A DNA stretch of 64,000 bases, taken from NCBI RefSeq assembly GCF_030684315.1, contig NC_081375.1, forward strand, positions 13,987,581 to 14,051,580, given 5' to 3'. Both the position numbers and the translations under genes were made by a program. Positions 23,549 through 62,181 of the stretch are shown here, piece by piece. The notes below the pieces were generated by a model. The model was given only the letters and a program-made list of their open reading frames with translations, was not told where the DNA came from and made no database searches. Origin of the DNA: Stegostoma tigrinum (taxonomy: Eukaryota). How positions within the stretch are numbered: position 1 is the stretch's first letter; every line of letters begins with the position of its first letter.

Positions 23549-23794
23549 TCAATATAGTGTGGAGCTGGAGGAACACAGCAGGTCAGGCAGCAGAGGAGGA
23601 GGAGGACAGTTGATGTTGTGGGTCCAGGCCCTTCATCAGGGCAGGGAAATCCAGTTCTGGGAAGCCCACCCCTGAGGAAGGGTCCCAACCTGAAACACTG
23701 ACTCTCCTGCTCTTCTGATGCTGCCTGATCTGCTGTGTTCCTCCAGTTCCACACTGTATTGACTGACTCCAGCATCTGTAGTTCTTGCTATCTC
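23549..23794. mobile_element. Short fold-back Penelope-derived insertion in Gypsy gag
   Basis: Inverted arms (gtgtggagctggaggaacacagcag / ctgctgtgttcctccagttccacac), tail on the right arm only, TSD atgagttctta at 23538-23548 and 23795-23805. Confidence 0.88.
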
Positions 23795-24492
23795 ATGAGT
23801 TCTTACCACTTCCGCAAGTGAGTTTTTAAACTCCTCCAGCAGAATAATCTCTCTAAGATCCTCATATGTCTTTTCTATCTTTAACGCTCTCGCCCATTTA
23901 GCGAATTTGCGATGTTAAACTCCTTTAAATTCAACAAGTCTGACACAAGTTCCTTCTTTATATTTCTGAACTGTTGACTATATGCTTCTGGTATCAATTT
24001 GTAGGCACTCAAAACAGCCTGTTTTACTTCGTCATATTCCCCTGACACCACCTTTGACAGCACTGCAAACACCTCTCCAGTCCTGCCTACCAAATTGGTC
24101 TGAATTAACATTACCCACAGTCTCTGGCCAGTTAATTTGGTTCGCCAATTTCTCAAAAGAAATGAAAAAGGCTTCTGCATCTTTTTCATCAAATTTTGGT
24201 AATGTTTTGACATATTTCAGCTTTCCTCTTACCCTGTTTGCAAAGTTTAAAAGTATATCCTTCCTCTGTCTTTCAAAACTTTCTTGGCAAATTTGGGGAG
24301 CATCTTCAAACCTCAGAATCTCTTCGGCAATGTTAAGAGCCATTTCACCAAATTTTGATTTAAACAACAAAATGTAACAGAAATTAAACAGATTTTCCAC
24401 TTCTCACCTAAGCTTTATTTAAAAATCTAGGACACTAATCCCAAGTCTGTTCAAATCTGTCCAAATCCAGATCCAATACACAAACTGGCCAG

Positions 24493-24513
24493 ATCCCAGG
24501 GCCAAGCCCCCCA
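24493..24513 (-). promoter_or_regulatory. Primer-binding site, tRNA-Pro-like
   Basis: Minus strand TGGGGGGCTTGGCCCTGGGAT versus canonical tRNA-Pro PBS TGGGGGCTCGTCCGGGAT, immediately after the LTR. Confidence 0.7.
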
Positions 24514-25580
24514 GTTACAAAAGGAGTGGTCGAAACCCCCTCTGATAACTAATTCTGAAATAGAGAAGCTCATCTTGCATCATAATCTATTAAAGAAGTG
24601 ATTAAGTGAAAGAAATTCCTGATATTCACTTCATAATCAACAAGTTACGATTTATTTAACTAACGCTAACAGTTAACATACAAGCAGAACTAACAAACTG
24701 AACAATTGCTACAAACTATTCCCAAATAAAACAAAATTGTAATGCAATGCCATTCCAATAGATAAAAGTTCCATTTATACAAACCAAATTAATAAAAAGA
24801 AAGGCTTAATTTCTCAAAATTACGGCTGGAATAAGTCTTCCGGAATGTCCGGAGCATTCTCCACTGTCCCCCATTCAGGAGCACCTTCCTCCAACGAATT
24901 TTTGAGTTAGGAATATTAGCCAAGAGTGCTGCAGTCCATTTATATCGATGGTGCTTACCTTGAGATCTTAGAAATTTCTGAGAGAGATAGGGATTTTCTC
25001 TTTTAGGGCTGACGGCTATTGAGAGCTATTCTCTTACTAGATGGCAGTTTGCCCTCTTCTCTTATACCTTTGATGATCTATTAATTTATTACAATAGGAT
25101 TGGTCTGAATTTGTCAAAACCATCAGGTTTAAATTTAATTGGGTTTGTCATCTAGGGCCTGGTTTAAGTCAATTAGCTAAATTCAAAAACCTGTTGTCTT
25201 GGTAACAATGTTGCTTTGTCTGTTAGCAGTATAGCCTTTTGATACAATGTTTCAATTTTACAACTCTTGTGTATCTGTGGCGGCCTGCAGACATTTATTT
25301 GTCATCTCCAAGCCTAAGAAAACACATCTTTTTAGAGGGACCACACACTCCTTTCCCCTATCATTTTACAAACAAATTCTCACGTCCTGTCTTCTAATCC
25401 ACAAATATTACACCCACTTCACAACAACAGTTGCTAACAGACATCCTTTTTAAATCTCTGAGTATAGCAAAAGCACGTCATCGTTTAAAAAGACCATACA
25501 ATGCTTTTCCCCTTAACATTTTACAAACAACAAATTATAATTTCCTGCCTCCCAATTCACAAACACTCCGCCCAACTTTC
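24514..25580 (-). repeat. 5' LTR of the Gypsy element (two candidate 5' starts, 25423 and ~25580)
   Basis: Homologous to 19967-20947 (e.g. ataatcaacaagt, tgtcaaaaccatcag, cttttgataca); directly precedes the PBS. Confidence 0.72.
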
Positions 25581-26186
25581 TGAAAGTTTTGTTTTCGGAA
25601 AATACACATTGAACAGGAAATGCTAGTTTTTGTTTTAAGGTCTTGATTTGCTTTCCCCACAACCAACATATCTCTTTCACATTATCACTGCATCTAGAAT
25701 CAATGAAAGAATTCAACAGAATGAACTTCTAATGAGAAAAGCCAACAGGAATTTCAAGCTCAAATGCCTCACCACGTCATGTTGCTCCTTCTCAACTATT
25801 TATTCCAACTGAATGGATACAGGTTCCATTCTGCAAGTTCACAGTTGCTACATGAACATTTTTCTTCATCACTGAATACTTCATGCTCCTGGCAATAACT
25901 TGATGTCTTCTAATCCCAGATGAAGCCAAAATGTCACCAGGCTAAAATCCTAAAATGAAGCCTCAAAGAATACATTTGTCAAGAATAATGAACCAATATG
26001 GTTTTTGAATGAATATTTACCCTGTGAAATCCAAACCAATTAATCAATATAATTTTTCCTCATGGTCAGTGACAAAAGACAGTCTGCACAGCTGTTAATA
26101 TTATAAAAGAACTACAATAATTTAGATCTGGTCATGCAATTTCTAAGTCACAGTAATTTTCATTTTAATACAGATAATACACTCAC

Positions 26187-26288
26187 CTGCAAGACGATTG
26201 GCAGCTGTTCTGGTGGATTCCTGTTCTCAACACCCATTGTCAGCCAGACCTGAAACGCTGTTAGCTGCTCAGCAAAGAATGGGCTATG
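26187..26288 (-). CDS. RPTOR: RPTOR coding exon (~exon 11, 102 nt): [34 protein letters not shown]
   Basis: Contained in ORF 26160..26453; ctcttttccag| acceptor and |gtgagt donor. Confidence 0.97.
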
Positions 26289-27019: not shown

Positions 27020-28800
27020 AAACTATGATTCCAAAAACAGCTCACAGACTGAGAATTAACTGATTTCCTGGCCCCTCAAAGTTCGTCGAAATTATAGAAG
27101 ATACAAGCAGGTGTGTCACAGGATGCTCTCCACTTGCCTGGATGAGCACAGTTACAACAATATTCTACGAAGCTCGATATGATCTACACAGGCGGTCCAT
27201 ATGGTCAGCATCTAATTCACTGCCTTAAGTACTCACCACTTCCAGCACAAGTATACGGTGGCAGCAGCATGTACCATCTCTTAGCTGCTTTTAGCAATTT
27301 ACCATGCCACCCTCAATGACATCTTCCAAACCTTTAAATGATATCACCTAGAGGAGCCAGGACATAGGCACAGAAATACCGCCAACTGCAAGTTTCCCTT
27401 CAAGCTACACTTCATTCAAACTTGGCATTGCGTAGCTTTTCCTTCACTGTTGCTGGGTCAAGAATTCTGGAACTTCCTTCTCAACATAGAACATTAGAGC
27501 ACAGTACAGACCCTTCGGCCCTCGATGTTGTGCCGACCTGTCATACCGATCTCAAGCCCATCTAACCTACACTATTCCATGTACGTCCATATGCTTATCC
27601 AATGACGACTTAAATGTACCTAAAGTTGGTGAATCTACGACTGTTGCAGGCAAAGCGTTCCATTCCCTTACTATTCTCTGAGTAAAGAAACTACCTCTGA
27701 CATCTATCCTATATCTTTCACCCCTCAATTTAAAGCTATGCCCCCTCGTGCTCGCCGTCACCACCCTAGGAAAAAGGGTCTCCTTATCCACCCTATCTAA
27801 CCCTCTGATTATTTTATATGTTTCAATTAAGTCACCTCTCAACCTTCTTCTCTCTAATGAAAACAGCCTCAAGTCCCTCAGCCTTTCCTCGGAGGACCTT
27901 CCCTCCATATCAGGGAACATCCTAGTAAATCTCCTCTGAACCCTTTCTAAAGGTTCCACATCATTCTTATAATGCAGTGACCAGAACCGTACACAATACT
28001 CCAAGTGCGGCCGCACCAGAGTTTTGTACAGCTTCACCATAATCTCTTGGTTCCGGAACTCAATCCCTCTATTAATAAAAGCTAAAACACTGTATGCCTT
28101 CTTAACAGCCCTGTCAACCTGGGTGGCAACTTTCAAGGATGTGTGTACATGGACATCGAGATCTCTCTGCTCATCTACACTACTAAGAATCTTACCATCA
28201 GCCCAGTACTTTGCCTTCCTGTCACTCCTACCAAAGTGCATCACCTCACACTTGTCTGCATTAAACTCCATTTGCCACCTCTCAGCCCAGCTCTGCAGCT
28301 TATCTATGTCTCTCTGCAACCTACAGCATCCTTCGTCACTATCCACATCTCCACCGACCTTAATGTCGTCTGCAAATTTACTAACCCATCCTTCTACGCC
28401 CTCATCCAGGTCATTTATAAAAATGACAAACAGCAGTGGACCCAACACCGACCCTTGCGGTACACCACTAGTAACTGGTCTCCAGGATGAACATTTCCCA
28501 TCAACTACCACCCTCTGTCTTCTTTCAGCAAGCCAATTTCCGATCCAAACTGCTATATCTCCCACAATTGCATTCCTCCGCATTTTGTACAATAGCCTAT
28601 TGTGGGGAACCCTATCAAACGCCTTGCTGAAATTCAAACGCCTTGCTGAAATACATCATATGGCATCATAAGCGTAACTACCCACCACTAGACAGTAACA
28701 GCTCAAGACAGCTGTTCACTGGAATCTTACCAAGGTAATTAGAGTGGGATGACAAATACTGGCCTTTTGAGCAATGTTCACATCCTATGAACAGATTAAA
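27020..28800 (+). mobile_element. Old LINE 3' end (27020-27483 plus ~28660-28800) split by a young CR1
   Basis: ccttcactgttgctgggtcaagaattctggaacttccttc continues after the CR1 as ...acagctcaagacagctg...aaggtaattagagtgggatgacaaatactggcc. Confidence 0.6.
27484..28652 (-). mobile_element. Young 5'-truncated CR1 LINE with an uninterrupted RT C-terminal frame (356 aa)
   Basis: ORF 27567..28637: FSKAFDRVPH, SGVPQGSVLGPLLF, SKFADD, RPHLEYCVRFWS, LFSLERRRLRGDLIE; 3' tail (atagaac). Confidence 0.95.
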
Positions 28801-28874
28801 AGAACATTTCGTACACTTACAAGCAATACAATATTTTTCCATTCAGAAGATGACACACCAAGTCACATGAATGA

Positions 28875-29250
28875 ATTCTGGTTGCTCTTCTATAGGGAGG
28901 ATGTTGTTGCGAGGTTGCATAAAAGATTTACAAGGATATTGTTTGGATTGCATTATAGGAAGAGGCTGAATAGGCTGGATCCTTTTTCCCCTCGAGTATT
29001 GGAAGCTGAGTGATCTTATAGAGGTTCATAAAATCACAAGGGGCATGGGCAGGGTAAATAGCCAAGGTCTTTTTCCTAGTGTGGGGAGTCCAAAAATAGA
29101 GGCCATAGGTTTCAGGTGAATGGGGCAAGATTTAAAAAGGATCTGAGGAGTAACATTTTCACAGGATGGCACATGTACGGAACGAGCTGCCGGGGAAGTG
29201 GTGGAGGCAGGTACAATTAGAACATGTAAAAGGCATCTGGATGGGTATAT
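28875..29250 (+). mobile_element. CR1 3' fragment
   Basis: RLHKRFTRIL, RKRLNRL and VEAGTIRTCKRHLDGY remnants. Confidence 0.75.
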
Positions 29251-29274
29251 AAAAACCTACTTTTCTCAAGCTAC

Positions 29275-29412
29275 CATCAGTTTTGAGGAAGGGTCACAGA
29301 ATTGGAAACATGAACATTTCTCTCCACAGATGCTGCCAGAGTTGCTGAGCTTTTCCGGCAATTTCTGTTTTTGTTTTTTTTTGATTTCCAGCACCTGCAG
29401 TTCTTTCAGTTC
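29275..29412 (+). mobile_element. Penelope-derived single arm with a degenerate hammerhead core
   Basis: ttgaggaagggtcac...gaaacatg...ctctccacagatgctgccagagttgctgagc...gatttccagcacctgcagttc. Confidence 0.65.
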
Positions 29413-30329
29413 TCATTCAGGAAACGGAATGATGCTGGTCAGGATACTGACATTTCGATGCTCAGGGCACCTGACCTGACATATGATACTTTCAGTGCAC
29501 TGATGACAACTAGTATGCAACACAGAATATATGCCATCAAAAAATACGTATTGCACATCCAGAAAACTGATAACCATGCAAATGCTCAGGAATCACAGTT
29601 TGAAAATCTGTGATGGAAGTGATAAAAGGCTCATATATATTGCTATGGAGATAAATATTTTAAAAATCCATGTACTAGTTTTCTCCAGAAGGCTTCAAAT
29701 GGTTTTGAATTTACATACACATTCAATGTTTGTGCAGTAAATTAAAGAGGTTGCACACAGAAGGGCCTTTAGAAAAGCCAAGTGATGGTGTAATCACGTG
29801 GTTGTAACCATTTTCTAGAATTTGGTCATCATCTATCTGTTGGTTCAAATTAGTTTACTCCTTTAAGTAATTTTCTGTTGCCATAAAGGAGGCTGCTTTT
29901 CTGGAGGTACTGCTACTCTACTTTCAGATGTTCAGCAAAAATGTTTATGCACACACATTTTAGTTTCAAGAAAATGCACCCCCATCATTTTTAAAGATGA
30001 TAGTTTGTGCTGCTGAATCATCTTTCAAACACTACACTTTGTTCAGAGGATTTGTGTGTACTACAGAGCTCCATAAAGATGCAAAAGTGCAATTAATTAC
30101 CGGGAGAAGAGAAGTTGCTTATTGAGCATAAATAAATTTGGCAGGCATGAGATTTTAATGCTAAGACTAACAAGACTAACACACTCAAATGTTAAGATGC
30201 TTTCTCGTGGAGAAACACTGCTTTCACGATGGGTCATGGGATGGGATGGAGCAGCCACAAAGAATTTTGAACATGGAAAGTAATTTGTTTGAACTTGAAA
30301 TTCTAACAAGTTTTCCTTCTCCCCTCTTT

Positions 30330-31500: not shown

Positions 31501-31520
31501 GTAACCTGCAATATAACCTG

Positions 31521-32320
31521 AGATAACAAAGTGTGGAGCTGGATGAACACAGCAGGCCAAGCAGCATCTCAGGAGCACAAAAGCTGACGTTTCGGGCCTA
31601 GACCCTTCATCAGAAAAGGGCTCTGAAATAAATAGGAAGAGAGAGGGAGGCGGGTCGAAGATGGATAGAGGAGAAGATAGGTGGAGAGGAGAATGACAAG
31701 TTAAAGTGGTAGGGATGGAGCCTGTAGAGGTGAGTATAGGTGGGGAGGTAGGGAGGGGTTGGGTCAGTCTGGGGAGGATGGGGGCAGGATGAGGTTAGTA
31801 GGTAGGAAATGGAAGTGCGGCTTGAGGTGGGAGGAGGGGATAGGTGAGAGGAAGAACAGGTTAGGGAAGCAAGGACGAGCTGGGCTGGTTTCAGGAACCA
31901 GTGGGGGGAGGGGAGATTTTGAAGCTTGTGAAATCCACATTGATACCATTGGGTTGTAGGGTTCCCAAGCAGAATATGAGTTGCTGTTCCTGCAACATTC
32001 GGGTGGCATCGTTGTGGCACTGCAGGAGGCCCAGGATGGACATGTCGTCTAAGGAATGCAAGGGGGAGTTGAAATGGTTTGCGACTGGGAGGTGCAGTTG
32101 TTTATTGCGAACTGAGCATAAGTCTTCTGCAAAGAAGTCCCCAAGCCTCCGCTTGGTTTCCCCGATGTAGAGGAAGACATAATGGGTACAGAGGATGCAG
32201 TATGCCACACTGGCAGATGTGCAGGTGAACATCTGCTTGATGTGGAAAGTAACTCATATTACGCTTGGGAATCCTGCAGGCCAATGGTATCAATGTGGAT
32301 TTCACAAGCTTCAAAATCAT
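31521..32320 (-). mobile_element. Penelope-like element 3' fragment (GIY-YIG endonuclease, pLTR) with a short inverted piece at 32250-32320
   Basis: YIGETKRRLGD..HLPVANHFN..EQQLIFCLGTLQPNGIN; intact hammerhead motif at 31584-31613. Confidence 0.9.
31584..31613 (-). ncRNA. Minimal hammerhead ribozyme motif
   Basis: Reverse complement reads ctgatgaagggtctaggcccgaaacgtcag. Confidence 0.72.
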
Positions 32321-35061: not shown

Positions 35062-35173
35062 GCAGGTTGCAGACAATCAGGAATTTACAGCCAAAGAAAT
35101 ACTTATTAAGTGATAATAAAATGTGAGGCTGGATGAACACAGCAGGCCAAGCAGCATCTCAGGAGCACAAAAG

Positions 35174-35203
35174 CTGACGTTTCGGGCCTAGACCCTTCAT
35201 CAG
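35174..35203 (-). ncRNA. Minimal type-I hammerhead ribozyme motif (PLE-associated)
   Basis: CUGAUGA-A-GGGU(CUAG)GCCC-GAAA-CGUC: core boxes, helix II, palindromic ACGU helix III and GUC site. Confidence 0.75.
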
Positions 35204-37816
35204 AGAGGGGGATGGGGAGAGGGAACTGGAATAAATAGGGACAGAGGGGGAGGCGGACCAAAGATGGAGAGTAAAGAAGATAGGGGGAGAGAGTATAGGT
35301 GGGGAGGTAGGGAGGGGATAGGTCAGTCCAGGGAAGACGGACAGGTCAAGGAGGTGGGATGAGGTTAGTAGGTAGATGGGGGTGTGGCTTGGGGTGGGAG
35401 GAAGGGATGGGTGAGAGGAAGAACAGGTTAGGGAGACAGAGACAGGTTGGACTGGTTTTGGGATGCAGTGGGTGGGGGGGGAAGAGCTGGGCTGGTTGTG
35501 TGGTGCAGTGGGGGGAGGAGACGAACTGGGCTGGTTTAGGGATGCAGTAGGGGAAGGGGAGATTTTGAAACTGGTGAAGTCCACATTGATACCATATGGC
35601 TGCAGGATTCCCAGGCGGAATATGAGTTGCTGTTCCTGCAACCTTCGGGTGGCATCATTGTGGCACTGCAGGAGGCCCATGATGGACATGCCATCTAGAG
35701 AATGGGAGGGGGAGTGGAAATGGTTTGCGACTGGGAGGTGCAGTTGTTTGTTGCGAACTGAGCGGAGGTGTTCTGCAAAGCGGTCTCCAAGCCTCCGCTT
35801 GGTTTCCCCAATGTAGAGGAAGCCGCACCGGGTACAATGGATGCAGTATACCACATTGGCAGATGTGCAGGTGAACCTCTGCTTAATGTGGAAAGTCATC
35901 TTGGGGCCTGGGATAGGGGTGAGGGAGGAGTTGTGGGGGCAAGTGTAGCAATTCCTGCGGTTGCAGGGGAAGGTACCGGGTGTGGTGGGGTTGGAGGGCA
36001 GTGTGGAGCGAACAAGGGAGTCACGGAGAGAGTGGTCTCTCCGGAAAGCAGGCAGGGGAGAGGATGGAAAAATGTCTTAGGTGGTGGGGTCGGATTGTAA
36101 ATGGCGGAAGTGTCGGAGGATGATGCGTTGTATCCGGAGGTTGGTAGGGTGGTGTGTGAGAACGAGGGGGATCCTCTTAGGGCGGTTGTGGCGGGGGCGG
36201 GGTGTGAGGGATGTGTTGCGGGAAATACGGGAGACGCGGTCAAGGGCGTTCTCGATCACTGTGGGGGGAAAGTTGCGGTCCTTGAAGAACTTGGACATCT
36301 GGGATGTGCGGGAGTGGAATGTCTTATCGTGGGAGCAGATGCGGCGGAGGCGGAGGAATTGGGAATAGGGGATGGAATTTTTGCAGGAGGGTGGGTGGGA
36401 GGAGGTATATTCTAGGTAGCTGTGGGAGTCGGTGGGCTTGAAATGGACATCAGTTACAAGCTGGTTGCCTGAGATGGAGACTGAGGTGTCCAGGAAGGTG
36501 AGGGATGTGCTGGAGATGGCCCAGGTGAACTGAAGGTTGGGGTGGAAGGTGTTGGTGAAGTGGATGAACTGTTCGAGCTCCTCTGGGGAGCAAGAGGCGG
36601 CGCCGATACAGTCATCAATGTACCGGAGGAAGAGGTGGGGTTTGGGGCCTGTGTAGGTGCGGAAGAGGGACTGTTCCACGTAACCTACAAAGAGGCAGGC
36701 ATAGCTGGGGCCCATGCGGGTGCCCATGGCCACCCCCTTATTCTGTAGGAAGTGGGAGGAGTCAAAAGAGAAGTTGTTGAGTGTGAGGACGAGTTCAGCT
36801 AGGCAGATGAGTGTGTCGGTAGAGGGGGACTGGTCGGGCCTGTGGGACAGGAAGAAGCGGAGGGCCTTGAGGCCATCTCCATGCGGAATGCAGGTGTACA
36901 GGGACTGGATGTCCATGGTGAATATGAGGTGTTGGGGGCCAGGGAATTGGAAGTCCTGGAGGAGGTGGAGGGCGTGGGTGGTGTCACGGACGTAGGTGGG
37001 GAGTTCCTTGACCAAAGGAGAGAAAATGGAGTCCAGATAGGTGGAGATGAGTTCGGTGGGGCAGGAGCAGGCTGAGACGATGGGTCGACCAGGGCAGGCA
37101 GGTTTGTGGATTTTGGGAAGGAGATAGAAACGGGCCGTGCGGGGTTGGGGAACAATGAGGTTGGAGGCTGTGGGTGGGAGGTCCCCTGAGGTGATGAGGT
37201 CGTGAATGGTGTTGGAGATGATGGTTTGGTGCTCGGCTGTGGGGTCATGATCGAGGAGGCGGTAGGAGGTGGTGTCGGAGAGTTGGCGTCTGGCCTCGGC
37301 GATGTAGAGGTCAGTGCGCCATACTACCACTGCGCCACCCTTGTCTGCGGGTTTGATGGTGAGGTTGGGGTTGGAGCGGAGGGAGCGGAGGGCTGCCCGT
37401 TCTGCGGGGGAGAGGTTGGAGTGGGTGAGAGGGGTGGAGAGGTTGAGGCGGTTAATGTCTCGACGGCAGTTGAAGATGAAGAGGTCGAGGGAGGGTAGGA
37501 GGCCTGGGGGTGGTGTCCAGGAGGAGGACTTGTGTTGGAAGTGGGTGAAGGGGTCAGTGGAAGGACGGTTAGGTTCCCGGTTGAAGAAGTAGGCATGGAG
37601 GCGAAGACGGCGGAAAAACTGCTCTATGTCCAACCGTGACTGGTATTCGTTGATGTGTGGTTGTCGGGGGACAAAGGTGAGCCCCTTGCTAAGGACTGAC
37701 CGTTTGTCCTCAGTCAGTGGGAGGTCTGGGGGGATGGTGAAGATGCGGCAGGGCTGAGTGTGGCTGTCTCCTCTGGGGTTGCTGGCTGTGGAGGTTGTGG
37801 GCGGAGCGATGAGGTC

Positions 37817-37976
37817 GTCGGCCGTGGGCGGGGTTCTGTCGGCCGTGGGCGGGGTTCTGTCGGCCGTGGGCGGGGTTCTGTCGGCCGTGGGCGGGGTTCT
37901 GTCGGCCGTGGGCGGGGTTCTGTCGGCCGTGGGCGGGGTTCCGTCGGCCGTGGGCGGGGTTCCGTCGGCCGTGGGC
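37817..37976. repeat. 21-bp GC-rich tandem repeat (gtcggccgtgggcggggttct/c), ~7.6 copies, at the inversion junction
   Basis: Directly visible; encodes (R/G)TPPTAD repeats in the PLE frame. Confidence 0.97.
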
Positions 37977-39716
37977 CAAAATCCACAAACCTGCCTGCCC
38001 TGGTCGACCCATCGTCTCAGCCTGCTCCTGCCCCACCGAACTCATCTCCACCTATCTGGACTCCATTTTCTCCCCTTTGGTCCAGGAACTCCCCACCTAC
38101 GTCCGTGACACCACCCATGCCCTCCACCTCCTCCAGGACTTCCAATTCCCTGGCCCCCAACACCTCATATTCACCATGGACGTCCAGTCCCTGTACACCT
38201 GCATTCCGCATGGAGATGGCCTCAAGGCCCTCCGCTTCTTCCTGTCCCACAGGCCCGACCAGTCCCCCTCTACCGACACACTCATCCACCTAGCTGAACT
38301 CGTCCTCACACTCAACAACTTCTCTTTTGACTCCTCCCACTTCCTACAGACTAATGGGGTGGCCATGGGCACCCGCATGGGCCCCAGCTATGCCTGCCTC
38401 TTTGTAGGTTACGTGGAACAGTCCCTCTTCCGCACCTACACAGGCCCCAAACCCCACCTCTTCCTCCGGTACATTGATGACTGTATCGGCGCCGCCTCTT
38501 GCTCCCCAGAGGAGCTCGAACAGTTCATCCACTTCACCAACACCTTCCACCCCAACCTTCAGTTCACCTGGGCCATCTCCAGCACATCCCTTACCTTCCT
38601 GGACCTCTCAGTCTCCATCTCAGGCAACCAGCTTGTAACTGATGTCCATTTCAAGCCCACCGACTTCCACAGCTACCTAGAATATACCTCCTCCCACCCA
38701 CCCTCCTGCGAAAATTCCATCCCCTATTCCCAATTCCTCCGCCTCCGCCCCCACGATAAGACATTCCTCTCCCGCACATCCCAGATGTCCAAGTTCTTCA
38801 AGGACCGCAACTTTCCCCCCACAGTGATCGAGAACGCCCTTGACCGCGTCTCCCGTATTTCCCGCAACACATCCCTCACACCCCGCCCCCGCCACAACCG
38901 CCCTAAGAGGATCCCCCTCGTTCTCACACACCACCCTACCAACCTCCGGATACAACGCATCATCCTCGACACTACCGCCATTTACAATCCGACCCCACCA
39001 CCTAAGGCATTTTTCCATCCCCTCCCCTGTCTGTTTTCCGGAGAGACCACTCTCTCCGTGACTCCCTTGTTCGCTCCACACTGCCCTCCAACCCCACCAC
39101 ACCCGGCACCTTCCCCTGCAACCGCAGGAAATGCTACACTTGTCCCCACACCTCCTCCCTCACCCCCATCCCAGGCCCCAAGATGACATTCCACATCAAG
39201 CAGAGGTTCACCTGCACATTTGCCAATGTGGTATACTGCATCCACTGTACCCGGTGTGGCTTCCTCTACATTGGGGAAACCAAGCGGAGGCTTGGAGACC
39301 ACTTTGCAGAACACCTCCGCTCAGTTCGCAACAAACAACTGCACCTCCCAGTCGCAAACCATTTCCACTCCGCCTCCCATTCTCTAGATGACATGTCCAT
39401 CATGGGCCTCCTGCACTGCCACAATGATGCCACCCGAAGGTTGCAGGAACAGCAACTCATATTCCGCCTGGGAACCCTGCAGCCATATAGTATCAATGTG
39501 GACTTCACCAGTTTCAAAATCTCCCCTTCCCCTACTGCATCCCTAAACCAGCCTAGTTCGTCCCCTCCCCCCACTGCACCACACAACCAGCCCAGCTCTT
39601 CCCCCCCACCCACTGCATCCCAAAACCAGTCCAACCTGTCTCTGCCTCCCGAACCGGTTCTTCCTCTCACCCATCCCTTCCTCCCACACCAAGCCGCACC
39701 CCCAGCCACCTACTAA
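37976..39716 (+). pseudogene. Inverted second copy of PLE RT plus GIY-YIG (9-bp deletion, 1-bp frameshift, same TAA)
   Basis: ORFs 38077..39186 and 39183..39716 mirror the minus-arm protein. Confidence 0.9.
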
Positions 39717-39877
39717 CCTCATCCCACCTCCTTGACCTGTCCGTCTTCCCTATACTGACCTATCCCCTCCCTACCTCCCCACCTATACTCTCTCCACCTA
39801 TCTTCTTTACTCTCCATCTTCAGTCCGCCTCCCCCTCTCTCCCTATTTATTCCAGCTCCCTCTCCCCATCCCCCTCT

Positions 39878-39907
39878 CTGATGAAGGGTCTAGGCCCGAA
39901 ACGTCAG
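39878..39907 (+). ncRNA. Minimal hammerhead ribozyme motif
   Basis: ctgatgaagggtctaggcccgaaacgtcag. Confidence 0.75.
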
Positions 39908-40114
39908 CTTTTGTGCTCCTGAGATGCTGCTTGGCCTGCTGTGTTCATCCAGCCTCACATTTTATTATCTTGGAATTCTCCAGCATCTGCAGTTCCCATT
40001 ATCTCTGATACTTATTAAGTGAAGTCACTTTCATCATGTGGGAAACACGGCCGCTAACTTGCACACATTACAGTCCCACAAACAGCAACTAAATGAACAA
40101 GGTTATCTGTTTTA

Positions 40115-41594
40115 GACATAAACAAGAAATGCTGGAGAATGCCAAAAGCCTGACAAGACATGTGGAGAGGGAAACAGAGTGAATCTTTCAATTCTGGATT
40201 GACTATTCTTCAGAACTCTGAGTATGGATGAATTGTTTTATGAGGAAACCCTGAGGAGGGTGACCCTTTACCTATCAATATTTAGAAGAATATGACTGAA
40301 CATTACTAAAACATACAAGTGCCTAGGAGTTTGACAGAGTCGATAAGAAAGTGGTTTCCCTTACGGGAGGGTCCAAGGCTAGAAGGCATAATCACAGAAT
40401 AACGGGTTGCAGACCTAAGGCAGGGATAATGAGGAGGAATTATTTACCACAAACGGCTACTGAGGCTAAGTCATTAAGCATACTTAAAAGCTGAAAGACA
40501 GATTTTTAATCATTAAGGGTATCAAGGTGTCTGGGGGGCCAAAAAGGCATGAAAGTGGAGTAAAGGGTCATCAGATCAGTCATGTTCTTACTGAATGTCA
40601 GAACAGACTCGATGAGCTGACTGGCCTATATTTACTTCAATGTCTTACAGTCAAATGGAAGAGTTGTCATACTGGACTCAAAATATAACTGTTTCTAGTG
40701 AGTTTTGAGAAGATTTGTAGCTCAGGTTGAGGTTCTGGATGTGAGTTTGCTCGCTGAGCTGGAAGGTTCGTTTTCAGACATTTCGTCACCATTCTAGGTA
40801 ACATCATCGGTGAGCCTCCGATGAAGCGCTGGTGTTATGTCCCACTTTCTTATTTATCTGTTTAGGTTTCCTTGGGTTGGTGATGTCATTTCCTGTGTTG
40901 GTGTCATTTCCTGTTCTTTTTCTCAGAGGGTGGTAGATGGGCTCCAAATCAATGTGTTTGTTGATGGAGTTCCGGTTGGAATGCCATGCCTCTAGGAATT
41001 CTCGTGCATGTCTCTGTTTGGCTTGTCCTAGGATGGATGTGTTGTCCCAATTAAAGTGGTGTCCTTCCTCATCTATATGTAAGGATACGAGTGATAGTGG
41101 GTCATGTCGTTTTGTGGCTAGTTGATGTTCATGTATCCTGGTGGCTAGCTTTCTGCCAGTTTGTCCAATGTAGTGTTTGTCACAGTTCTTGCAAGGTATT
41201 TTGTAAATTACGTTTGTTTTGCTTGTTGTCTGTATAGGGTCTTTTAAGTTCATTAGCTGCTGTTTTAGTGTGTTGGTGGGTTTGTGGGCTACCCTGATGC
41301 CAAGAGGTCCGAGTAGTCTGGCAGTCATTTCGGAAATGTCTTTGATGTAGGGGAGTGTGGTTATGGTTTCTGGGTCCTTTTTGTCTGTTTGTTTGGGTTT
41401 GTTGCTGAGGAATCGGCAGACAGATGATGTTACCTAGAATGGTGACCAAACGTCTGAAAACGAACCTTCCAGCTCAGCGAGCAAACTTATATCCATAACT
41501 GTTTTTCCCTTCACAAATGCTGCCACACCCCCTGATTTTTCCAATACTTTCTATGCTTGTTTCAGATTTCCAGAATCTGCAGTATTTTGCTTTC
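40115..41594. mobile_element. Old fold-back PLE-derived element (arms ~40120-40218 and 40657-40694 plus 41495-41594) containing a CR1 3' fragment (~40270-40650) and a younger PLE
   Basis: Arms gaaatgctggag...ttcttcagaact and gaagagttgtcatactggactc...cacaaatgctgcc...cagatttccagaatctgcagtattttgc; TSD atctgtttta at 40105-40114 and 41595-41604. Confidence 0.7.
40697..41494 (-). mobile_element. Second-family Penelope-like element 3' fragment (GIY-YIG) with an inverted terminal arm
   Basis: ORF 40804..41328 NVIYKIPCKNCDKHYIGQTGRKLATRIHEH..REFLEAWHS; inverted arms 40737-40808 and 41423-41494; TSD ataactgttt at 40685-40694 and 41495-41504. Confidence 0.92.
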
Positions 41595-45240: not shown

Positions 45241-45262
45241 TCTAGGTATCACACATTGAGTT

Positions 45263-45484
45263 ATAGATGTTGATGGGTTCGCCAAGCTGGGAGGTTTGAT
45301 ATCAGATGAAACGTCTGCTTACTCGGTGACATCCTCAGTGCTGTAGTGTCTCCTCTGGATACTTCACAAGGGCCCTACAGCGCTCGTAAGGGGACGAAAC
45401 GTCTGCTATCAAACCTCCCAGCTTGGCGAACACACCAACATCTACAACCAGCATCCGAGCTACAAAATCTTCACTCAAATCTTG
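45263..45484. mobile_element. Short fold-back PLE-derived insertion (related to the 40.7-kb family)
   Basis: Arms tagatgttgatgggttcgccaagctgggaggtttgata / tatcaaacctcccagcttggcgaacacaccaacatcta; gacgaaacgtc core; tail on the right; TSD atcacacattgag (45248-45260) / atcatacattgag (45485-45497). Confidence 0.85.
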
Positions 45485-53399: not shown

Positions 53400-54900
53400 C
53401 AAGATGGCCTTCGTGAAGATGATAAGATACAGGATTATCTCAAAACCGAAGTTTGACGAATTAACACATTACTCTGATTACAAATGACATTACCAGATAA
53501 AATATCAAAGAGAGTAAAGACACTTTTGAAGTTGTTCCAGAATCTTTTGGAAATTACTTCTATTTAATACAGCCAAGGTTTAACAATAGAATTCATAATC
53601 CAGGAGAGTCTGTGGACAATTTAGTTACTGATCACTGTCGGTTGAAAAACCGAACATGGAACTGTGAAATCTGAATTCACAAGAGATAGAAATGTCATCA
53701 CTGAAATTCTGGATGAAGCTTTGTCAGTTTTCATACAGACCAAGATAGATTTAACTTCGGAGAAAGCAATTCAAATTGTGAATGATGCAGAAATCAGAAA
53801 AACTCCAAACAGATCCTGAGAGAAGACCAGTTCTACCTAGAGTGGACAATTGATTATTTCAGGTTAACAGGGTGTAGAGCTGGATGAACACAGCAGGCCA
53901 AGCAGCAACAGAGGAGCAGGAAAGCTGATGTTTCAGGTCTGGACCCTTCTTCAGAAATTTCTTGGCCTGCATGTGTTCATCCAGCTCTACACCTTGTTGT
54001 CTCAGATTCTCCCGCATTGCAGTTCCTACTATCTCTGATTCCGTTAGATTTATAGGTTGTGGGCAAGCTAAGTACACAACAAGCCTGCACAGAGAACAAG
54101 AAAAATATTGAATGTCAAAGATATCAATGTCTGCGCCAGGGATCACAAGCACAGAAAATGGCTAGTCACAACTAAGGATTGTTATATTTGTAAAACTGAA
54201 AGTCACTTCCAGATGATGTACAGAAGATAGATAAAATTTCAGAACAGACGACGTTCTAGTAGTCGTATAAGTACAGAGGTCTACACAGTAGCACAGTCAC
54301 CATTGAAGGACGTGTCTGTATTTGATGAAATACCTCCACTAGTGAAGACACCTGAGGTATTCCTATGTAAACTAACTAATCCAGACAAGTCAAAAGAGCC
54401 AGAACATGTCTGTGCCAAATGAACATCCTGTTGATTTTGCGCTTCATTCAGGTCAAAGGAGAAAGTAACCAGTTGCCATGGGTGAAAAGTTTCAGCCTAC
54501 AGCAATGAGAATACATGACACAGGTAAAATAATTCTATCAGAAGCATAAGAATGGCGCAGGCTACATGATAATACAATGCACGAGGAGTCGAAAACTTGT
54601 ACTTCGTTCACAATTAACCAATTTCATTTTTAAGGCTGCAAGCATGTCTTGACTTGAACCTTATCAGACAAGCTGTAGGAGATCAACAACTTCTCAGAGA
54701 ACAACTGCCCCAAAAGCAAACAGCTGTCCATATACTGGTCAACCAACAAACAGTTATTGATCAACCAGTCAAGAATGAAGCTGAAGACTTCAATGGGCTT
54801 CCAAACCTCATGCTGGAACCTAGGCAGAAGAAACATCCCAATGGGATCACATACATGGCATCAGGGAGCTCTTCAGCATGGTACAGGAAGTCACCAATTT
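53400..54900 (+). mobile_element. Possible very decayed Gypsy gag/pol remnant
   Basis: gag-like DEALS..DLTSEKAIQIV..AEIRK near 53710-53805; no long ORF. Confidence 0.4.
53866..54038. mobile_element. Short fold-back PLE-derived insertion
   Basis: Arms ggtgtagagctggatgaacacagcaggccaag / cttggcctgcatgtgttcatccagctctacacc, plus tail; the left arm ends at cccttcttcag. Confidence 0.85.
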
Positions 54901-55839: not shown

Positions 55840-57249
55840 GATAATAAAATGTGGGGCTGGATGAACACAGCAGGCCCAGCAGCATCTCAGGAGCACAAAA
55901 GCTGACGTTTTGGGCCTAGACCCTTCATCAGAGAGGGGGATGGGATGAGGGTTCTGGAATAAATAGGGAGAGAGGGGGAGGCGGACCGAAGATGGAGAGA
56001 AAAGAAGATAGGTGGAGAGGAGAGTATAGGTGGGGAGTTAGGCGGGGGGGGATAGGTCAGTCCAGGGAAGACGGACAGGTCAAGGAGGTGGGATGAGGTT
56101 AGTAGGTAGGAGATGGAGGTGCGGCTTGGGGTGGGAGGAAGGGATGGGTGAGAAGAAGAACAGGTTAGGGAGACAGAGACAGGTTGGACTGGTTTTGGGA
56201 TGCAGTGGGTGGAGGGGAAGAGCTGGGCTGGTTGTGTGGTGCAGTGGGGGGAGGGGACGAACTGGGCTGGTTTAGGGGTGCGGTGGGGGAAGGGGAGATT
56301 TTGAAGCTGGTGAAGTCCACATTGATGCTATTGGGCTGCAGGGTTCCCAAGCGGAATATGATTTGCTGTTCCTGCAACCTTCGGGTGGCATCATTGTGGC
56401 ACTGCAGGAGGCCCATGATGGACATGTCATCTAAAGAATGGGAGGGGGAATGGAAATGGTTTGTGACTGGGAGGTGCAGTTGCTTATTGCGAACCGAGTA
56501 GAGGTGTTCTGCAAAGCGGTCCCCAAGCCTCCGCTTGGTTTCCCCAATGCAGAGGAAGCCACACCGGGTACACTGGATGCAGTATACCACATTGGCAGAT
56601 GTGCAGGTGAACCTCTGCTTACTACGGAAAGTCATCTTGGGGCCTGGGATAGGGGTGAGGGAGGTTGTGTGGGGGCAAGTGTAGCATTTCCTGCAGTTGC
56701 AGGGGAAGGTGCCGGGTGTGGTGGGGTTGGAGGGCAGTGTGGAGCGAACAAGGGAGTCACGGAGAGAGTGGTCACACAACCAGCCCAGCACAGTTCGTCC
56801 CCTCCCCCCACTGCACCACACAACCAGCCCAGCTCTTCCCCTCCACCCACTGCATCCCAAAACCAGTCCAACCGGTCTCTGCCTCCATAACCTGTTCTTC
56901 CTCTCACCCATCCATTCCTTCCACCCCAAGCCGCACCTCCATCTCCTACCTACTAACCTCATCCCACCTCCTTGACCCGTCCGTCTTCCCTGGACTGACC
57001 TATCCCCCCGCCTAACTCCCCACCTATACTCTCCTCTCCACCTATCTTCTTTTCTCTCCATCTTCGGTCCGCCTCCCCCTCTCTCCCTATTTATTCCAGA
57101 ACTCTCATCCCATCCCCCTCTCTGATGAAGGGTCTAGGCCCGAAACGTCAGCTTTTGTGCTCCTGAGATGCTGCTGGGCCTGCTGTGTTCATCCAGCCTC
57201 ACATTTTATTATCTTGGATTCTCCAGCATCTGCAGTTCCCATTATCACT
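55840..57249. mobile_element. 1.4-kb fold-back PLE of the young family (minus arm 55840-56773 with GIY-YIG, plus arm 56774-57249 with tail)
   Basis: Same sequence family as 35112-40009; TSD atttctggaac at 55825-55835 and 57250-57260. Confidence 0.94.
57122..57151 (+). ncRNA. Minimal hammerhead ribozyme motif (the partner at 55902-55931 has GAAA mutated to AAAA)
   Basis: ctgatgaagggtctaggcccgaaacgtcag. Confidence 0.72.
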
Positions 57250-58430: not shown

Positions 58431-60699
58431 TTTCATCAAGCTTTGCTTCCCTGCAAAAGCATCCTTCTGAATTTTGTCAATATAAAGGCAATTCCTCAGG
58501 TGTGAGCTTTCACTGCCAAGTGGTTATATAGTAAATGTGGGCAAGTTGTCCAACTCTGGATGAAGGATCGCTTTATTTCAGCATCCACAAATTTACGGGT
58601 CTCTGACAGCAACTCAGAGTTGCTACTCTGGTCAATAATTCTTCACTCTAATCAAACACGTGTAGGGCCAAAACAACTGCATTGATTAAAGCTCATTTGC
58701 TCAGTTCAAGCTGGAAGCTTCTAGTCCTAATGCTGTAACAGAAGCCTTATACAAAAATCATTATAGACGTGCATTCTACACTTAGTCTATGCTGTCGCAA
58801 AGAATAAACACTTGAATTAGCTACTAGAAAATGTCTTCTGTAAAATTTTGGCAGCAGCAAGATTTTTGAAAAAAATAAACAGGGAAAGCAAGAAAGGCGA
58901 CAATGGTCGAGGAAGAATGACAGAAGGCCACAAGATAATTGAAAGAAATCCTTCAGGATTGAGATTTGGACTGCAGATTCATAGCATAGTCAAATAAAGG
59001 GAAATAAATATTGACTCCAATGGAACTACTTCCCAATTTGCAAAGCTGAATCACGGGTTTACACAGAAAACAGGAATGGAAAGGTTAAATCTGAACCAGA
59101 ATTAAACTGATGGTTCCTCCCCCTACTTAATCCCAAATTAAACATTCAGGACTAGAACTTCTATTAATATGCAGAAAATGCAAGGAAGCTGACAATGAAC
59201 AATGCATGTGTGAAGGAGCTCACCTAAACTTTCCTGAAATCACACTGCTTGGTGCATCCAGCCCGTAAAAATGACACAAGCTACTTTACAGCACCTCCAC
59301 CAAAGAGGAGAATGGATTTGTTGAGCTGAACAGTCTGATTTTGTACTGAATATCCTATATTATTATAGAGTTGGTTCAAAGTATTTTAATTTAGCAGTCT
59401 TCTACCACCACATATCCAATTACATTCCAGTGTAAGACAATTCAAAATGTCACAGCAAAAAAAAAATCACACTATGAAAGATCAAAAGAATGTAAACATT
59501 GAAAAGTTTTAAGTATGAGAGCATACACTTTGGGTTAAATCAGGCCCTGAAGTTTTTTTTAAAATGCACTATTTTAATTAGTAACCACCTTGCTCTATTC
59601 ATAGCATCCTAGCTCACTAATGTAACAGAGAAAGCAATTATTTTGTTTCCTATCTCAAAGTTCCTGAATAACAAGTTCTAAATAGCAGAGTGACTAATTA
59701 ATAACGGTACGAAGAAAACTTTCACGATCTGTATGGATTTAACCTCTACTGGAACTATTGATTTAGCAATTTAATGGCATATTTTTGTGCAACAGATCTA
59801 TTTGCAAACAGTCCAAACATTAAATGGCGGAGAACGGGCACCGTACATAAAAGATCAATAAATTGGCAACTGCTTTATAAGCATTTTTGCGAATTACGAT
59901 TAGCTCGTATTGCTAGACTCTGATTTACAGTGATAAAGAACCTATTACATACGCACATAATTAACATCCATAATATATTAAGACCAGATTTCAACTAGAA
60001 ACTAATTTAATTTATTTACTTAATTATTATTACTTAATTTATAAGCATATTGATTGCCTTCTGTTCGATACGAGAACAAAAAAAATCAAAGTTTCAGTAA
60101 TAATTGCTGGTGGTATAATCACTGCATTCAAATGGTTAATTTCAACCTTTAATGTCACAAATCGAAAACAAAGATATGGTTTTGCTTATTTAATTGACAA
60201 TTAGCAGGTCAGAAAAGTGCATCAAACCTTACTGTTAGAACAAATTTTTTTCTTCATTGAAATAATTCTGGTGTTTCCGAATAATGCTGAACATTTCACT
60301 GCAACTTTCAGAGTAAAAGCAGGCTTGACATTCTAAGTTCACAGGGAGTAAAGAGGCACATAAAGCAATATCAGGAATTAAAACGGAAAATAAAATTAGC
60401 AGAATGACACAAACTACTCTACAAGAGGTCTTAAGGATCAGTCCTAGTGAATAATCAATACATACAGGTTCTGAACTGAAATAAAGCAGAGAATGCTGGA
60501 GCAATTAAGCAAATCTGAAATGCTTGCTCATCACAGAAGTACAATTTCTGTCCTCATGTTCCCTTTAATTACTTGTAATTCATTGGATGTAACAATATTT
60601 CACAAGAAGCCATGAATTAGTTTTTCACACAAGGAATGATGGGCTCCACAACATGAATTTAAGTTTCAAAAAGAGGAAAAAAATGATGAAGAAATACTT

Positions 60700-60925
60700 A
60701 AAGATAGTAGGAACTGCCGATGCTGGAGAATTTGAGATAACGATGTGCAGAGCTGGATGAACACATCAAGCCAAGCAGCATCAGAGGAGCAGGAAAGCTG
60801 ACATTTCGGGACTAGACCCTTCTTCAGAAAAAATGAAGAAGAGCCTAGACCTGAAACATCAGCTTTCTTGCTCCTCTGATGGTTCTTGGCCTGTTGTGTT
60901 TGTCCAGCTCTATACCTTACTATCT
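60700..60925. mobile_element. Short fold-back PLE-derived insertion with two outward-facing degenerate hammerhead cores
   Basis: ...tttcgggactagacccttcttcag aaaaaa tgaagaagagcctagacctgaaacatcag...; tail on the left; TSD atgaagaaatac at 60686-60697 and 60926-60937. Confidence 0.88.
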
Positions 60926-61004
60926 ATGAAGAAATACAGTTTGCATTTTAGCGTTACATCTTGCCCTTAGTTTTTTTTGTCTTCCCTGAAACTTTGATCC
61001 AGTC

Positions 61005-61140
61005 ACCAGTTCTGACAGAAGATAAATCTGAAATGTGAACAATTCTTTTCTTCATAACATTGACTGACTGATCTGCTGAGTATTTCTGGCACTTTCTGCT
61101 TTTAATTCAGATTTCTGGTATCTGCAGTATTTAGCATTTG
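61005..61140 (+). mobile_element. Old PLE-derived single arm
   Basis: ttctgacagaaga..ctgaaatgtgaac...ctgatctgctgagtatttctggcactttctg...cagatttctggtatctgcagta. Confidence 0.55.
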
Positions 61141-61988
61141 TATCTCACAACCATAATTAGGCCGAATGCCTCTGTACCACGTTAGCCATTATTTTAAATG
61201 GGGAATTATACACAATTATACAAGGGATATATTCACAAGCTTTGAAAATCACATAGGCTCAGGTTGTCATTTAGCTTATTTAATTGCTGGAACTGATTCC
61301 CAGTGATTACTAAAATCAAATATACGTTGTCTACTAATGGCCTTCAATGCCAGCTACAATGTAAACTCTACAGATTTCACTAAAAATACTTTGACAAACA
61401 GATTCTGAAAGGTCACATATGGATGTAACAACAGTTATACTGAGTTTTTACTTAGTTGTCCTAATAATGAAGAAATCATCAGGGCTTGCTATTATTACAG
61501 GAAAAACTGACAGCAATATCTGCCATTGGCAGTTAAACACAGAAATCCATGATGACCGGCACCTCCACAGGTTACACTTTTGTAATCTTCATCAATGTAG
61601 TCTGCAATTTGAAATGCACATGATATTAATAGAAACTGGCTACAGTAGTACACAAGCAAATATATTATCTTATTAAAAAAGTAGCTCTGAAAACACAGGA
61701 TTTTCCAATAACTTATTACAATTGCAAATTAGCACTTTGAAGACAACTGCATTTCCTTCAACTGGCTAATTACAACAAAAAAAATCCATACTCTGACACT
61801 AGTTCTTAAAATGGACTTGATAATCTGTTAGCAATAATTAGTCTTCAAACAGGACCTCTAATTGGCATTGAGAGGTTTACACAAGGCTTCCACAAGGTTT
61901 ATTTTATGCCCATAACTATTTCTTAGATACATTATGACAAACTAAAAACTGCACTGGAACAGTCAAATTAAATAACGAAAACATTAAC

Positions 61989-62181
61989 ACAGAACTTCAA
62001 AGGTCTGGCAGCACTTGCGGAGAGAAAGCAAAGTCAATGTTTCGAGTCCAGTGACCTTGCATCAGAACTAGACCTGAAATGGTGACACTGCTCTCACCAC
62101 AGATGCTGCCAGACCTACTGATTTTCTCTGGCAATTTTTCTTTTTATTTCAGATTTTGATCATCTGCAGTTCTTGGTAATT
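61989..62181. mobile_element. Short fold-back PLE-derived insertion (older family)
   Basis: Arms aggtctggcagcacttgcggagag / ctctcaccacagatgctgccagacct; TSD aaaacattaac (61978-61988) / aaaacatgaac (62182-62192). Confidence 0.75.

Follow-up and report, generated by a model that had tools for sequence, protein, structure and literature searches.

Canonical endonuclease-bearing (EN+) Penelope-like element (PLE) insertions carry head-to-head arms, a single tail of 30–40 bp, a target-site duplication (TSD), an adjacent inverted 5'-truncated copy, a hammerhead in the pLTR, and a reverse transcriptase (RT) with a GIY-YIG endonuclease at its C-terminus (PMC8557442, PMC3846280), an anatomy that the insertions described here resemble. 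In the portions of these accounts accessible to us, 5' truncation is general and no fixed breakpoint is given, whereas in two of the present families between a third and almost all of the arms end inside a 7-nt stretch, and the arms of a pair are coupled. The accessible text on the anole PLE enzyme (PAc, Poseidon of Anolis) describes an enzyme that nicks and extends both strands, starts reverse transcription at two internal sites delimiting the tail, and does not need hammerhead cleavage (PMC11167929), all of which parallels the scheme proposed below; the distance from core to tail is also similar. PAc belongs to the Poseidon clade, while here it is the Poseidon-type family that lacks a breakpoint spike, and that text neither maps an RNA 5' end nor explains the inverted joining. 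In Drosophila virilis Penelope, a 75-nt intron extends up to the hammerhead and the transcription start site is 46 nt upstream of this intron, so a core-edge start is no general rule. Non-LTR retrozymes are likewise short, non-coding, hammerhead-bearing and derived from PLE pLTRs, but they form head-to-tail arrays (10.64898/2026.07.22.740005), whereas the copies here are dispersed, lone or head-to-head, with TSDs. How PLE pLTRs, inverted ends and tails are formed, and what role the hammerhead plays, is an open question in the sections of the PLE literature consulted (PMC11167929, PMC8557442, PMC3846280).

Fold-back insertions in the window

The window, i.e. the whole 64,000-nt stretch of Stegostoma tigrinum DNA analysed here, contains nine fold-back insertions with inverted arms, all recovered approximately where the preliminary description had placed them and each with a tail on one arm only, as seen by eye. 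A further family A copy had been missed, and it is accompanied by a short inverted piece at 32244-32318 (Table 1). The statement that every insertion except that at 53866 has a clear TSD of 10–15 nt was too strong, since an exact TSD of this length was found in 6/9 and the other three are weaker. Assembly artefact was excluded as the source of the fold-backs, given that their arms differ by up to 20–30% and that they carry TSDs and one-sided tails; contigs from two sequencing runs at 60400-62500 covered the unique flanks, were broken by the repeats and spanned neither insertion.

Table 1. Coordinates of the fold-back insertions and of their parts in the window. Arm ends are given relative to the first C of CUGANGA.
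Feature	Position	Strand	TSD	Arms and other parts
Old family-A-type short fold-back	23549..23794		11 nt exact, 23538/23795	arms 23549-23646 and 23665-23762; cores 23639(-), 23672(+); tail 23763-23794
Additional family A copy	31519..32250	-		long untailed arm, core 31613
Young family A1 (probably Neptune-type) long inverted insertion	35112..40009		15 nt exact, 35099/40008	left (-) untailed, to about -2840; right (+) tailed, to about -1900; both arms with RT and GIY-YIG frames
Putative RNA 5' end (-4/-5, from junctions of other copies), then minimal hammerhead motif	39874..39907	+		core from 39878, stem II, GAAA, GUC
Tail between two 3' end classes	39969..40009	+		about +91 and +127/+132 from core
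Family B (probably Neptune-type) fold-back	40115..41594		10 nt exact, 40105/41595	left arm 40115-40217, ends -4, core 40213 (-); right arm tailed, about 40655 to 41594, interrupted by nested family C insertion; centre about 440 bp of other sequence
Family C (probably Poseidon-type) insertion nested in family B arm	40697..41494		10 nt exact, 40685/41495	left long, tailed, GIY-YIG frame; right short, from about 41420
Old family-C-like fold-back	45263..45484		8 nt exact; 11 nt allowing one mismatch (by eye)	arms 45260-45322 and 45386-45448; right from about +20, not at core edge
Family A2 short fold-back	53866..54038		none found	left arm ends -4, core 53954 (-); right arm tailed, starts about +50, without hammerhead
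Family A1 medium inverted insertion	55840..57249		11 nt exact, 55825/57250	untailed to about -840; tailed to -337
Family A2 short fold-back	60700..60925		12 nt exact, 60686/60926	left tailed, ends -3, core 60827 (-); right from about +1
Family B short fold-back (61989 in the preliminary description)	61974..62181		7 nt exact only, degenerate	left ends -4, core 62065 (-); right tailed, from about +15

Judged by their sequence, these fold-backs are genuine PLE insertions with the known anatomy of inverted copies, one-sided tail and TSD. An RVT_1 profile matched at E 4e-6, which is under Pfam's curated cut-off, and the endonuclease frames gave no Pfam match; the GIY-YIG motif with internal CCHH is legible in the translations of families A, B and C, so that the order of EN+ PLEs, RT and then, C-terminally, the GIY-YIG endonuclease, was found. 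The PLE layout was likewise found at locus L112, where a 3,528-nt unit lies between two pLTRs and an inverted copy is also present, and 37/40 fold-backs examined have a single tail. Neptune and Nematis clades have a CX2-5CxxC linker between RT and endonuclease, according to the accessible part of PMC8557442. A CX4CxxC linker is present in families A and B (the latter from L234), which we assign provisionally to the Neptune type, the linker alone fitting Neptune or Nematis; family C lacks it, as the L274 and L256 translations pass from the thumb straight to the endonuclease, and by this criterion it would be of the Penelope/Poseidon type.

The motif contains the elements of a minimal type I hammerhead (CUGANGA, stem II, GAAA and a UH site), with an A1 helix I that by eye spans just about 2 bp and a longer stem II in family C. 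As to cleavage capacity, the predicted A1 monomer fold would pair the core with the cleavage strand. An Rfam search of the window returned no hammerhead match, and its mir-607 match at 53.9 kb is due to chance. A class II (MITE) origin was rejected, as the arms are PLE 3' ends, the tail is at one end and the TSD varies around 11–16 nt. A tandem head-to-tail hammerhead array of the retrozyme kind was rejected as well: the window copies are lone or inverted, and one searched pattern of close direct core-to-core junctions gave 35 genome-wide, against 5,891 loci with two cores back to back.

Arm ends cluster just upstream of the hammerhead core

Positions were counted from the first C of CUGANGA, and genome-wide numbers are pattern counts. 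Among 100 young A1 arms, 34 end at 0 to -6 (12 at -5, 8 at -4), none at -7 to -20 and 10 at -7 to -100, an excess at 0 to -6 with a binomial p of 5e-31. The sample takes the first 100 among 87,638 exact matches, with one extra arm left out; every arm in it comes from the initial 3.1 Mb of contig C1, and for 30 the flank was limited to 1.5 kb. When family A arms were anchored downstream, 36/118 ended at -7 to +5, 18 at +6 to +30 and 4 at -8 to -30, thinning out from the edge into the motif. The edge was even more frequent among the anchored arms of A2 (24/30 at 0 to -7) and B (30/30 at 0 to -6) and absent from those of C (0/30), these samples being the first 30 of 788, 752 and 6,765 matches, respectively. 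Among family-B-like arms, 81/156 ended at -7 to +5 and 7/156 beyond -30. The offset is the same in A1, A2 and B despite different upstream sequence, and lone short copies with a TSD show the -4/-5 edge too (L189, L197, L234).

The clustering noted in the preliminary description is thus real, genome-wide and far beyond chance in families A and B. As had been proposed, it also falls immediately upstream of the core rather than at the GUC, since the cleavage position (+28) is the start of only 2/118 downstream-anchored family A arms and, by eye, of 2–3/35 direct junctions. The suggestion that three families share it does not hold, as family C has only 7 back-to-back loci genome-wide; the spike is lineage-specific, strong in the Neptune-type families A and B and absent in the Poseidon-type family C. 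Of the five breaks originally quoted at the core edge, four (40.2, 53.95, 60.8 and 62.07 kb) do lie at -3/-4, on one arm each, and the fifth, at 41.42 kb and about -1 to +2, comes from family C, which lacks the spike. The partner arms at 53.95, 60.8 and 62.07 kb start deeper (Table 1), and that at 40.2 kb is displaced by other inserts. No report of a PLE 5' breakpoint fixed at the edge of the hammerhead was found in our literature search, whose coverage left most subscription journals and Repbase/Dfam entries outside, and the text supplements of PMC11167929, as distinct from its figures, gave no match for the terms used.

The two arms of an insertion are coupled

Forty fold-backs were examined, being 40 of the 50 listed among the 5,891. 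Their arms were concordant at diagnostic sites in 31–34/35 loci, against 18–23 expected, and shared private changes within a locus, such as a 3-nt deletion in L174, which points to one RNA as the template of both arms; at L102, the arms come from two haplotypes. Among 49 paired insertions (L112 entered once), 21 were short/short, 25 long/long and 3 mixed, where about 24 mixed pairs would be expected if the arms were independent. In long pairs, the untailed arm reached further 5' in 7, the tailed arm in 10, and the two were about equal in 4. The two long copies of the window likewise have a longer untailed arm. That either arm may reach further indicates that both were templated by RNA. The 40 fold-backs had 22 distinct centres, a TSD-like match of at least 11 nt in 29/40 (mode 14, varying around 11–16 nt), and arm 3' ends in two classes, at about +91 and +127/+132 from the core.

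Probable run-off at a fixed RNA 5' end

We consider it probable (roughly 0.6) that the short arms end where a capped transcript begins, and that both arms would be copied from one RNA and then joined. The endonuclease would make a staggered cut of about 14 nt, as suggested by the observed TSDs, and the two target 3' ends would prime at two RT start sites about 35–40 nt apart, placed at +91 and +127/+132 by analogy with the anole enzyme. If priming took place on a pLTR near the RNA 5' end, whether that of a short lone-pLTR transcript or, in a full transcript, the upstream one, the two cDNAs would reach the end of their template at about 95 and 135 nt and frequently acquire a C opposite the cap. 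Their 3' ends would be trimmed and joined by microhomology into a palindrome with one tail, made anew each time, while the long inverted copies with their random truncation would stem from priming on the downstream pLTR. The hammerhead would be a position marker, with neither cleavage nor a block there. A discrete RNA 5' end combined with twin priming, one of the options raised in the preliminary description, is compatible with the junction data. Some upstream pLTRs continue past -5 (L112 to -51, L145 to -56), which under the run-off reading would need read-through or strand transfer.

Two established processes invite comparison. In L1 twin priming, a single RNA is primed from the two ends of a staggered cut, and microhomology joins the cDNA ends; the outcome there is an inversion without duplication, whereas here an inverted duplication would result, as both primers would copy the same stretch. 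In LTR elements, minus-strand strong-stop DNA is a short run-off product primed near the RNA 5' end, and a repeat at both RNA ends that could permit transfer is a further resemblance. The strong-stop primer is a tRNA, in contrast to the nicked target DNA proposed here, and transfer to the 3' copy is here only hinted at by aberrant jumps.

The bases at the junctions are consistent with a cap. Among the 35 direct core-to-core junctions, an untemplated G just precedes the arm in 17, the donor's own G in 9, and another base or none in 9 (by eye, without a statistical test), and 17/23 junctions with untemplated bases end in G, where about a third would be expected. RTs can also add untemplated bases without a cap. 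For L1, an untemplated 5' G is a possible cap signature in the accessible text of PMC9341517. The partner arm or the TSD accounts for many of the other Gs seen at junctions. Genome-wide, G precedes a -4 arm 2,045 times (preceding A excluded) against 2,370 for A/T, counts not used as proof because they are confounded by long-copy point mutations, partner arms and microhomology. By eye, the context of the -4 base is Inr-like in A2 and B and TCT-like in A1; such motifs, being short, readily turn up in pyrimidine-rich DNA. Within the hammerhead motif, a DPE-like word sits about 2 nt off the canonical spacing (by eye).

Alternative explanations

Short copies might propagate themselves as non-autonomous, SINE- or retrozyme-like elements, a lone arm that retains an internal promoter and the RT start sites being re-copied by the PLE enzyme. 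This possibility, to which we give appreciably less than even odds, is compatible with run-off and concerns the origin of most short RNAs. It would fit the short fraction (34/100 in young A1, 24/30 in A2, 30/30 in B, with few B-like arms beyond -30), the internal promoter of D. virilis Penelope, and the older-type variants that are commoner in short A1 arms (+76, p 0.03; +77, p 0.01; uncorrected). Yet the commonest A1 haplotype is common to short (17/34) and long (31/66) arms with no short-only clade evident, the differing centres indicate that hairpins are not copied as units, and the short copies do not form tandem arrays, in contrast to retrozymes. Short arms also sometimes jump into the element's coding region (L048, L244, L220), a pointer to full transcripts as template. 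The clade of pre-formed hairpin mini-elements envisaged in the preliminary description is therefore not borne out by the centres and the A1 haplotypes; in family B, where all anchored arms are short, there are few long copies for a clade comparison.

The fixed 5' end could instead be made by decay, if a 5'→3' exonuclease halted before a protein-bound hammerhead and the protected RNA of about 135 nt were copied twice. Exonuclease stalling leaves a few unpaired bases before an obstacle, which matches the -4/-5 offset and would account for its constancy in different sequences. The anole protein moreover needs this RNA region and assists the ribozyme (PMC11167929, accessible text). Ends made by decay are uncapped, leaving the extra G unexplained, and family C has the same RNP anatomy without a spike; we regard decay as rather unlikely.

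Folding back of one cDNA to copy itself, or self-priming of an antisense template, as proposed in the accessible text of PMC3846280, would make the second arm a DNA copy of the first. Such snap-back would explain the shared haplotypes and private changes, and short palindromic remnants occur at some junctions (L146, L048). In 7/21 long pairs and both long window copies, however, the untailed arm has 5' sequence that the tailed arm lacks, while the tailed arm has the tail, so that neither can have copied the other; for long pairs, snap-back is largely refuted. It also leaves unexplained why lone copies with TSDs have the -4/-5 edge; overall it appears improbable.

Still more doubtful is arrest or release of the RT at the ribozyme fold or at an upstream pyrimidine tract, the other option of the preliminary description. 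The 5' base of the predicted A1 hairpin is the core's first C, and A1 and A2 have a long pyrimidine tract upstream. But RT moves 3'→5' and the break lies past the fold, which makes arrest unlikely: it would be expected before the fold, at about +29, whereas the cDNAs end 4–5 nt after crossing the whole motif. Furthermore, family B has the sharpest edge although it cannot form the A1 hairpin (by eye), family C combines a stronger stem II with the lack of a spike, 66/100 A1 arms read through, and the folding z-score is -0.18.

It is highly improbable that the short copies result from cleavage by the hammerhead or from deletion of long palindromes after their insertion, for although centres are heterogeneous and older families are dominated by short copies, deletion would give neither 34 versus 0 arms across a 7-nt boundary, nor lone short copies abutting a TSD, nor an extra G, and cleavage predicts the rarely observed +28. 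Splicing was rejected as the source of the edge: by eye, A1 has acceptor-like sites at about -22 and B has them near -2, but the short copies have no common upstream exon.

Implications

Thousands of insertions made in vivo are recorded in these junctions, and they suggest that a single RNA is copied twice from the two nicks and that its 5' end is fixed, at a base that can be named, in one clade but not in another. Many hairpin-shaped repeats in such genomes would accordingly be retroelement products rather than MITEs or microRNA genes. More speculatively, Neptune-type PLEs may be transcribed from the 5' edge of their hammerhead and make a cDNA of the retroviral strong-stop kind twice per RNA, from both nicks; its homologous transfer to the downstream repeat would build the pLTR tandem, and failed transfers would be ligated into tens of thousands of palindromic mini-insertions that could seed SINE-like families. 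If this tentative view is true, each palindromic mini-insertion would keep a promoter and the RT start sites.

Fold-back insertions of the window and their families

Position 0 is the C that opens the hammerhead core CUGANGA, and upstream positions are negative; genome-wide counts refer to the 3.2-Gb genome, in which the window is G000:C26:13,987,581-14,051,580. Judging by its CR1-like and Penelope-like content, the DNA may come from a cartilaginous fish. All nine fold-back insertions of the preliminary description are present with inverted arms, and they sort into three families (A, B and C), in agreement with its minimum of three. The target-site duplications (TSDs), described as clear and 10-15 nt long in all but the insertion at 53866, are exact at that length in six of the nine, weaker in two and lacking in one. 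Among five breaks that had been placed at the core edge, four lie there on one arm (-3/-4), while the fifth belongs to family C. Translations of families A and B read with a CX4CxxC linker ahead of the GIY-YIG domain and those of family C without it; the accessible text of PMC8557442 gives this linker as a Neptune/Nematis mark that is missing in Penelope/Poseidon. A natural full unit of A1, the young subfamily of A, was found at the genomic locus L112, with two pLTRs 3,528 nt apart and a main reading frame from about +166, whereas the ORF of the anole element begins at stem II. The 285-nt duplication listed below is either a target duplication of unusual length or a tandem duplication that arose locally in connection with the insertion.

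Further features of the window and of L026, a sampled locus outside it
Feature	Position	Description
CR1-like RT fragment	7922-8476	
Direct duplication	14861-15532	285 nt, 99% identical (14861-15145 and 15248-15532), around a tailed family A 3' fragment (15139-15205)
CR1-like RT fragment	27567-28655	RVT_1, E 1e-21
Family B lone copy	29249-29417	extends to -34, at end of CR1-like stretch
Tenth family A insertion	31519-32318	long untailed arm, inverted remnant only 75 nt, no clear TSD
21-nt tandem repeat	37816-37976	N-terminal part of family A ORF; encodes seven-residue Pro/Thr/Ala/Asp repeat; adjoins inversion junction of 35112 insertion; also in L112
Upstream ORF	39881-39922 (+)	13 codons, ATG within hammerhead core, ahead of the main ORF
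Weak Rfam mir-607 match	53863-54001	38 bits, far under gathering score 94; caused by fold-back hairpin
Nested short arm	L026:1400-1620	core-edge arm within long inverted arm of same family; host sequence resumes on both sides with almost no duplication

A sharp breakpoint at the hammerhead edge

Exact copies of the A1 core 33-mer number 87,638 in the whole genome. Among the first 100 matches, which come from one contig end and were picked irrespective of upstream sequence, 34 arms end at 0 to -6 (12 at -5, 8 at -4) versus none at -7 to -20, and the other 66 end anywhere from -49 to past -2,600. The breakpoints thus cluster at the core edge, as had been claimed, rather than spreading evenly; if exact matches alone are counted, extrapolation from this one-contig-end sample gives roughly 30,000 short A1 arms. 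Across a contiguous 664 kb, 36/118 downstream-anchored family A arms start at -7 to +5 versus 4/118 at -8 to -30, with 18/118 at +6 to +30 (the last few rows of the 118 are weak anchors). Anchored arms of the older A2 and of B (first 30 matches each) end at 0 to -7 in 24/30 and 30/30 cases, and 81/156 B-like arms, a few A-type cross-hits included, fall at -7 to +5 in 1.45 Mb not chosen for B. The clustering did not extend to all families, however, since none of the first 30 anchored family C arms ends at the core edge; 4/25 unselected family C arms lie at -7 to +5, including the window's own copy and two from diverged relatives. Back-to-back core pairs at most 11 nt apart occur at 5,891 loci genome-wide; for family C, only 7 such loci stand against 6,765 cores, about 65-fold fewer per core than in A1. 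These counts reveal an edge that is real, sharp and lineage-specific. Fold-back PLE anatomy is already known; in the literature searched (most subscription papers and Repbase/Dfam excluded), we found no report of PLE copies breaking off at a fixed 5' position beside the hammerhead, nor of the clade specificity of this break, the extra G or the arm coupling described below.

Short copies as possible elements in their own right

Nearly all family B copies are short, with long ones rare yet present (7/156), so secondary SINE-like spread may have occurred in this family. In A1, older-type variants are somewhat enriched among short arms; the short-only clade that had been suggested is not evident, the commonest haplotype being found in 17/34 short and 31/66 long arms. 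Nor is there one centre junction common to the short copies: 40 fold-backs, among 50 listed of 5,891, have 22 different centres, which indicates that each hairpin was made anew. A retrozyme identity is at odds with the definition in the available portion of 10.64898/2026.07.22.740005, which demands tandem arrays. At the sampled loci L150, L196, L198 and L341-L350, jumps leading from the core edge to between +28 and +55 have made short repeats of the hammerhead region in direct orientation, with units of about 30-60 nt; these are possible seeds of retrozyme-like tandems.

Two arms from one template

Exactly one arm is tailed in 37/40 fold-backs, and 29/40 have a TSD-like match of at least 11 nt (mode 14). 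Both arms derive from one template: at four diagnostic sites they agree in 31-34 of 35 loci versus 18-23 expected, with private changes in common and L102 as an exception. Arm lengths are coupled as well, 49 paired insertions comprising 21 short/short, 25 long/long and 3 mixed pairs versus about 24 mixed expected. Of the long pairs, 7 have an untailed arm that extends further 5', 10 have a tailed arm that does so, and in 4 the two are about equal; in both long window copies the untailed arm is longer; neither arm is therefore simply copied from the other. This speaks against antisense self-priming, put forward in the accessible part of PMC3846280, and agrees with the anole PLE enzyme, which, according to excerpts of PMC11167929, nicks and extends both strands, with two internal start sites delimiting the tail. 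Lone short copies abutting their own TSD were also found, some tailed and some untailed. At L048, L150, L220 and L244, core-edge arms continue by jumps into other element parts, as expected if run-off cDNA seeks a new template.

Nature of the edge

RT arrest at the ribozyme fold, one of the explanations offered earlier, is unlikely, because RT, running 3'->5', comes to a stop only after passing the whole motif, and because family C, with its longer stem II, reads through. Hammerhead cleavage as the source of the edge is contradicted by the lack of enrichment at +28 (2/118 downstream-anchored arms), which bears out the earlier statement that the break is not at the GUC site.

The hard upstream limit, with trimmed ends tailing downstream, is the pattern that arises when RT runs off the end of its template and the products are then end-joined. 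A fixed template end just upstream of the core is very likely; RT would run off there, and the cDNA ends would then be trimmed and joined. Under a strong-stop scheme, run-off cDNA would jump seamlessly to the downstream repeat, and such transfer stays hypothetical because the jump would be traceless. Judging from sequence features, the edge is probably a capped RNA end, that is, a transcription start site. In A2 and B the -4 base is an A that follows two pyrimidines, and in A1 it is a C inside a pyrimidine run; these contexts resemble Inr and TCT initiators, respectively, a weak indication. At the 35 direct junctions genome-wide that place another motif copy of like orientation ahead of a core-edge arm, the base before the arm, classed by eye, is an untemplated G in 17, the donor's own G in 9 and something else in 9; an untemplated 5' G is a possible cap signature for L1 in the text available from PMC9341517. 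Overall, a capped RNA 5' end, with two joined cDNAs from one RNA, provides the best explanation, at a probability of about 0.6.

In D. virilis, Penelope starts further upstream, ahead of an intron ending at the hammerhead (PMC2377424, PMC4209133, accessible parts); by analogy, a start site further upstream may explain why the Poseidon-type family C has no spike. Fold-back hairpins of PLEs may also become mis-annotated as microRNA precursors.
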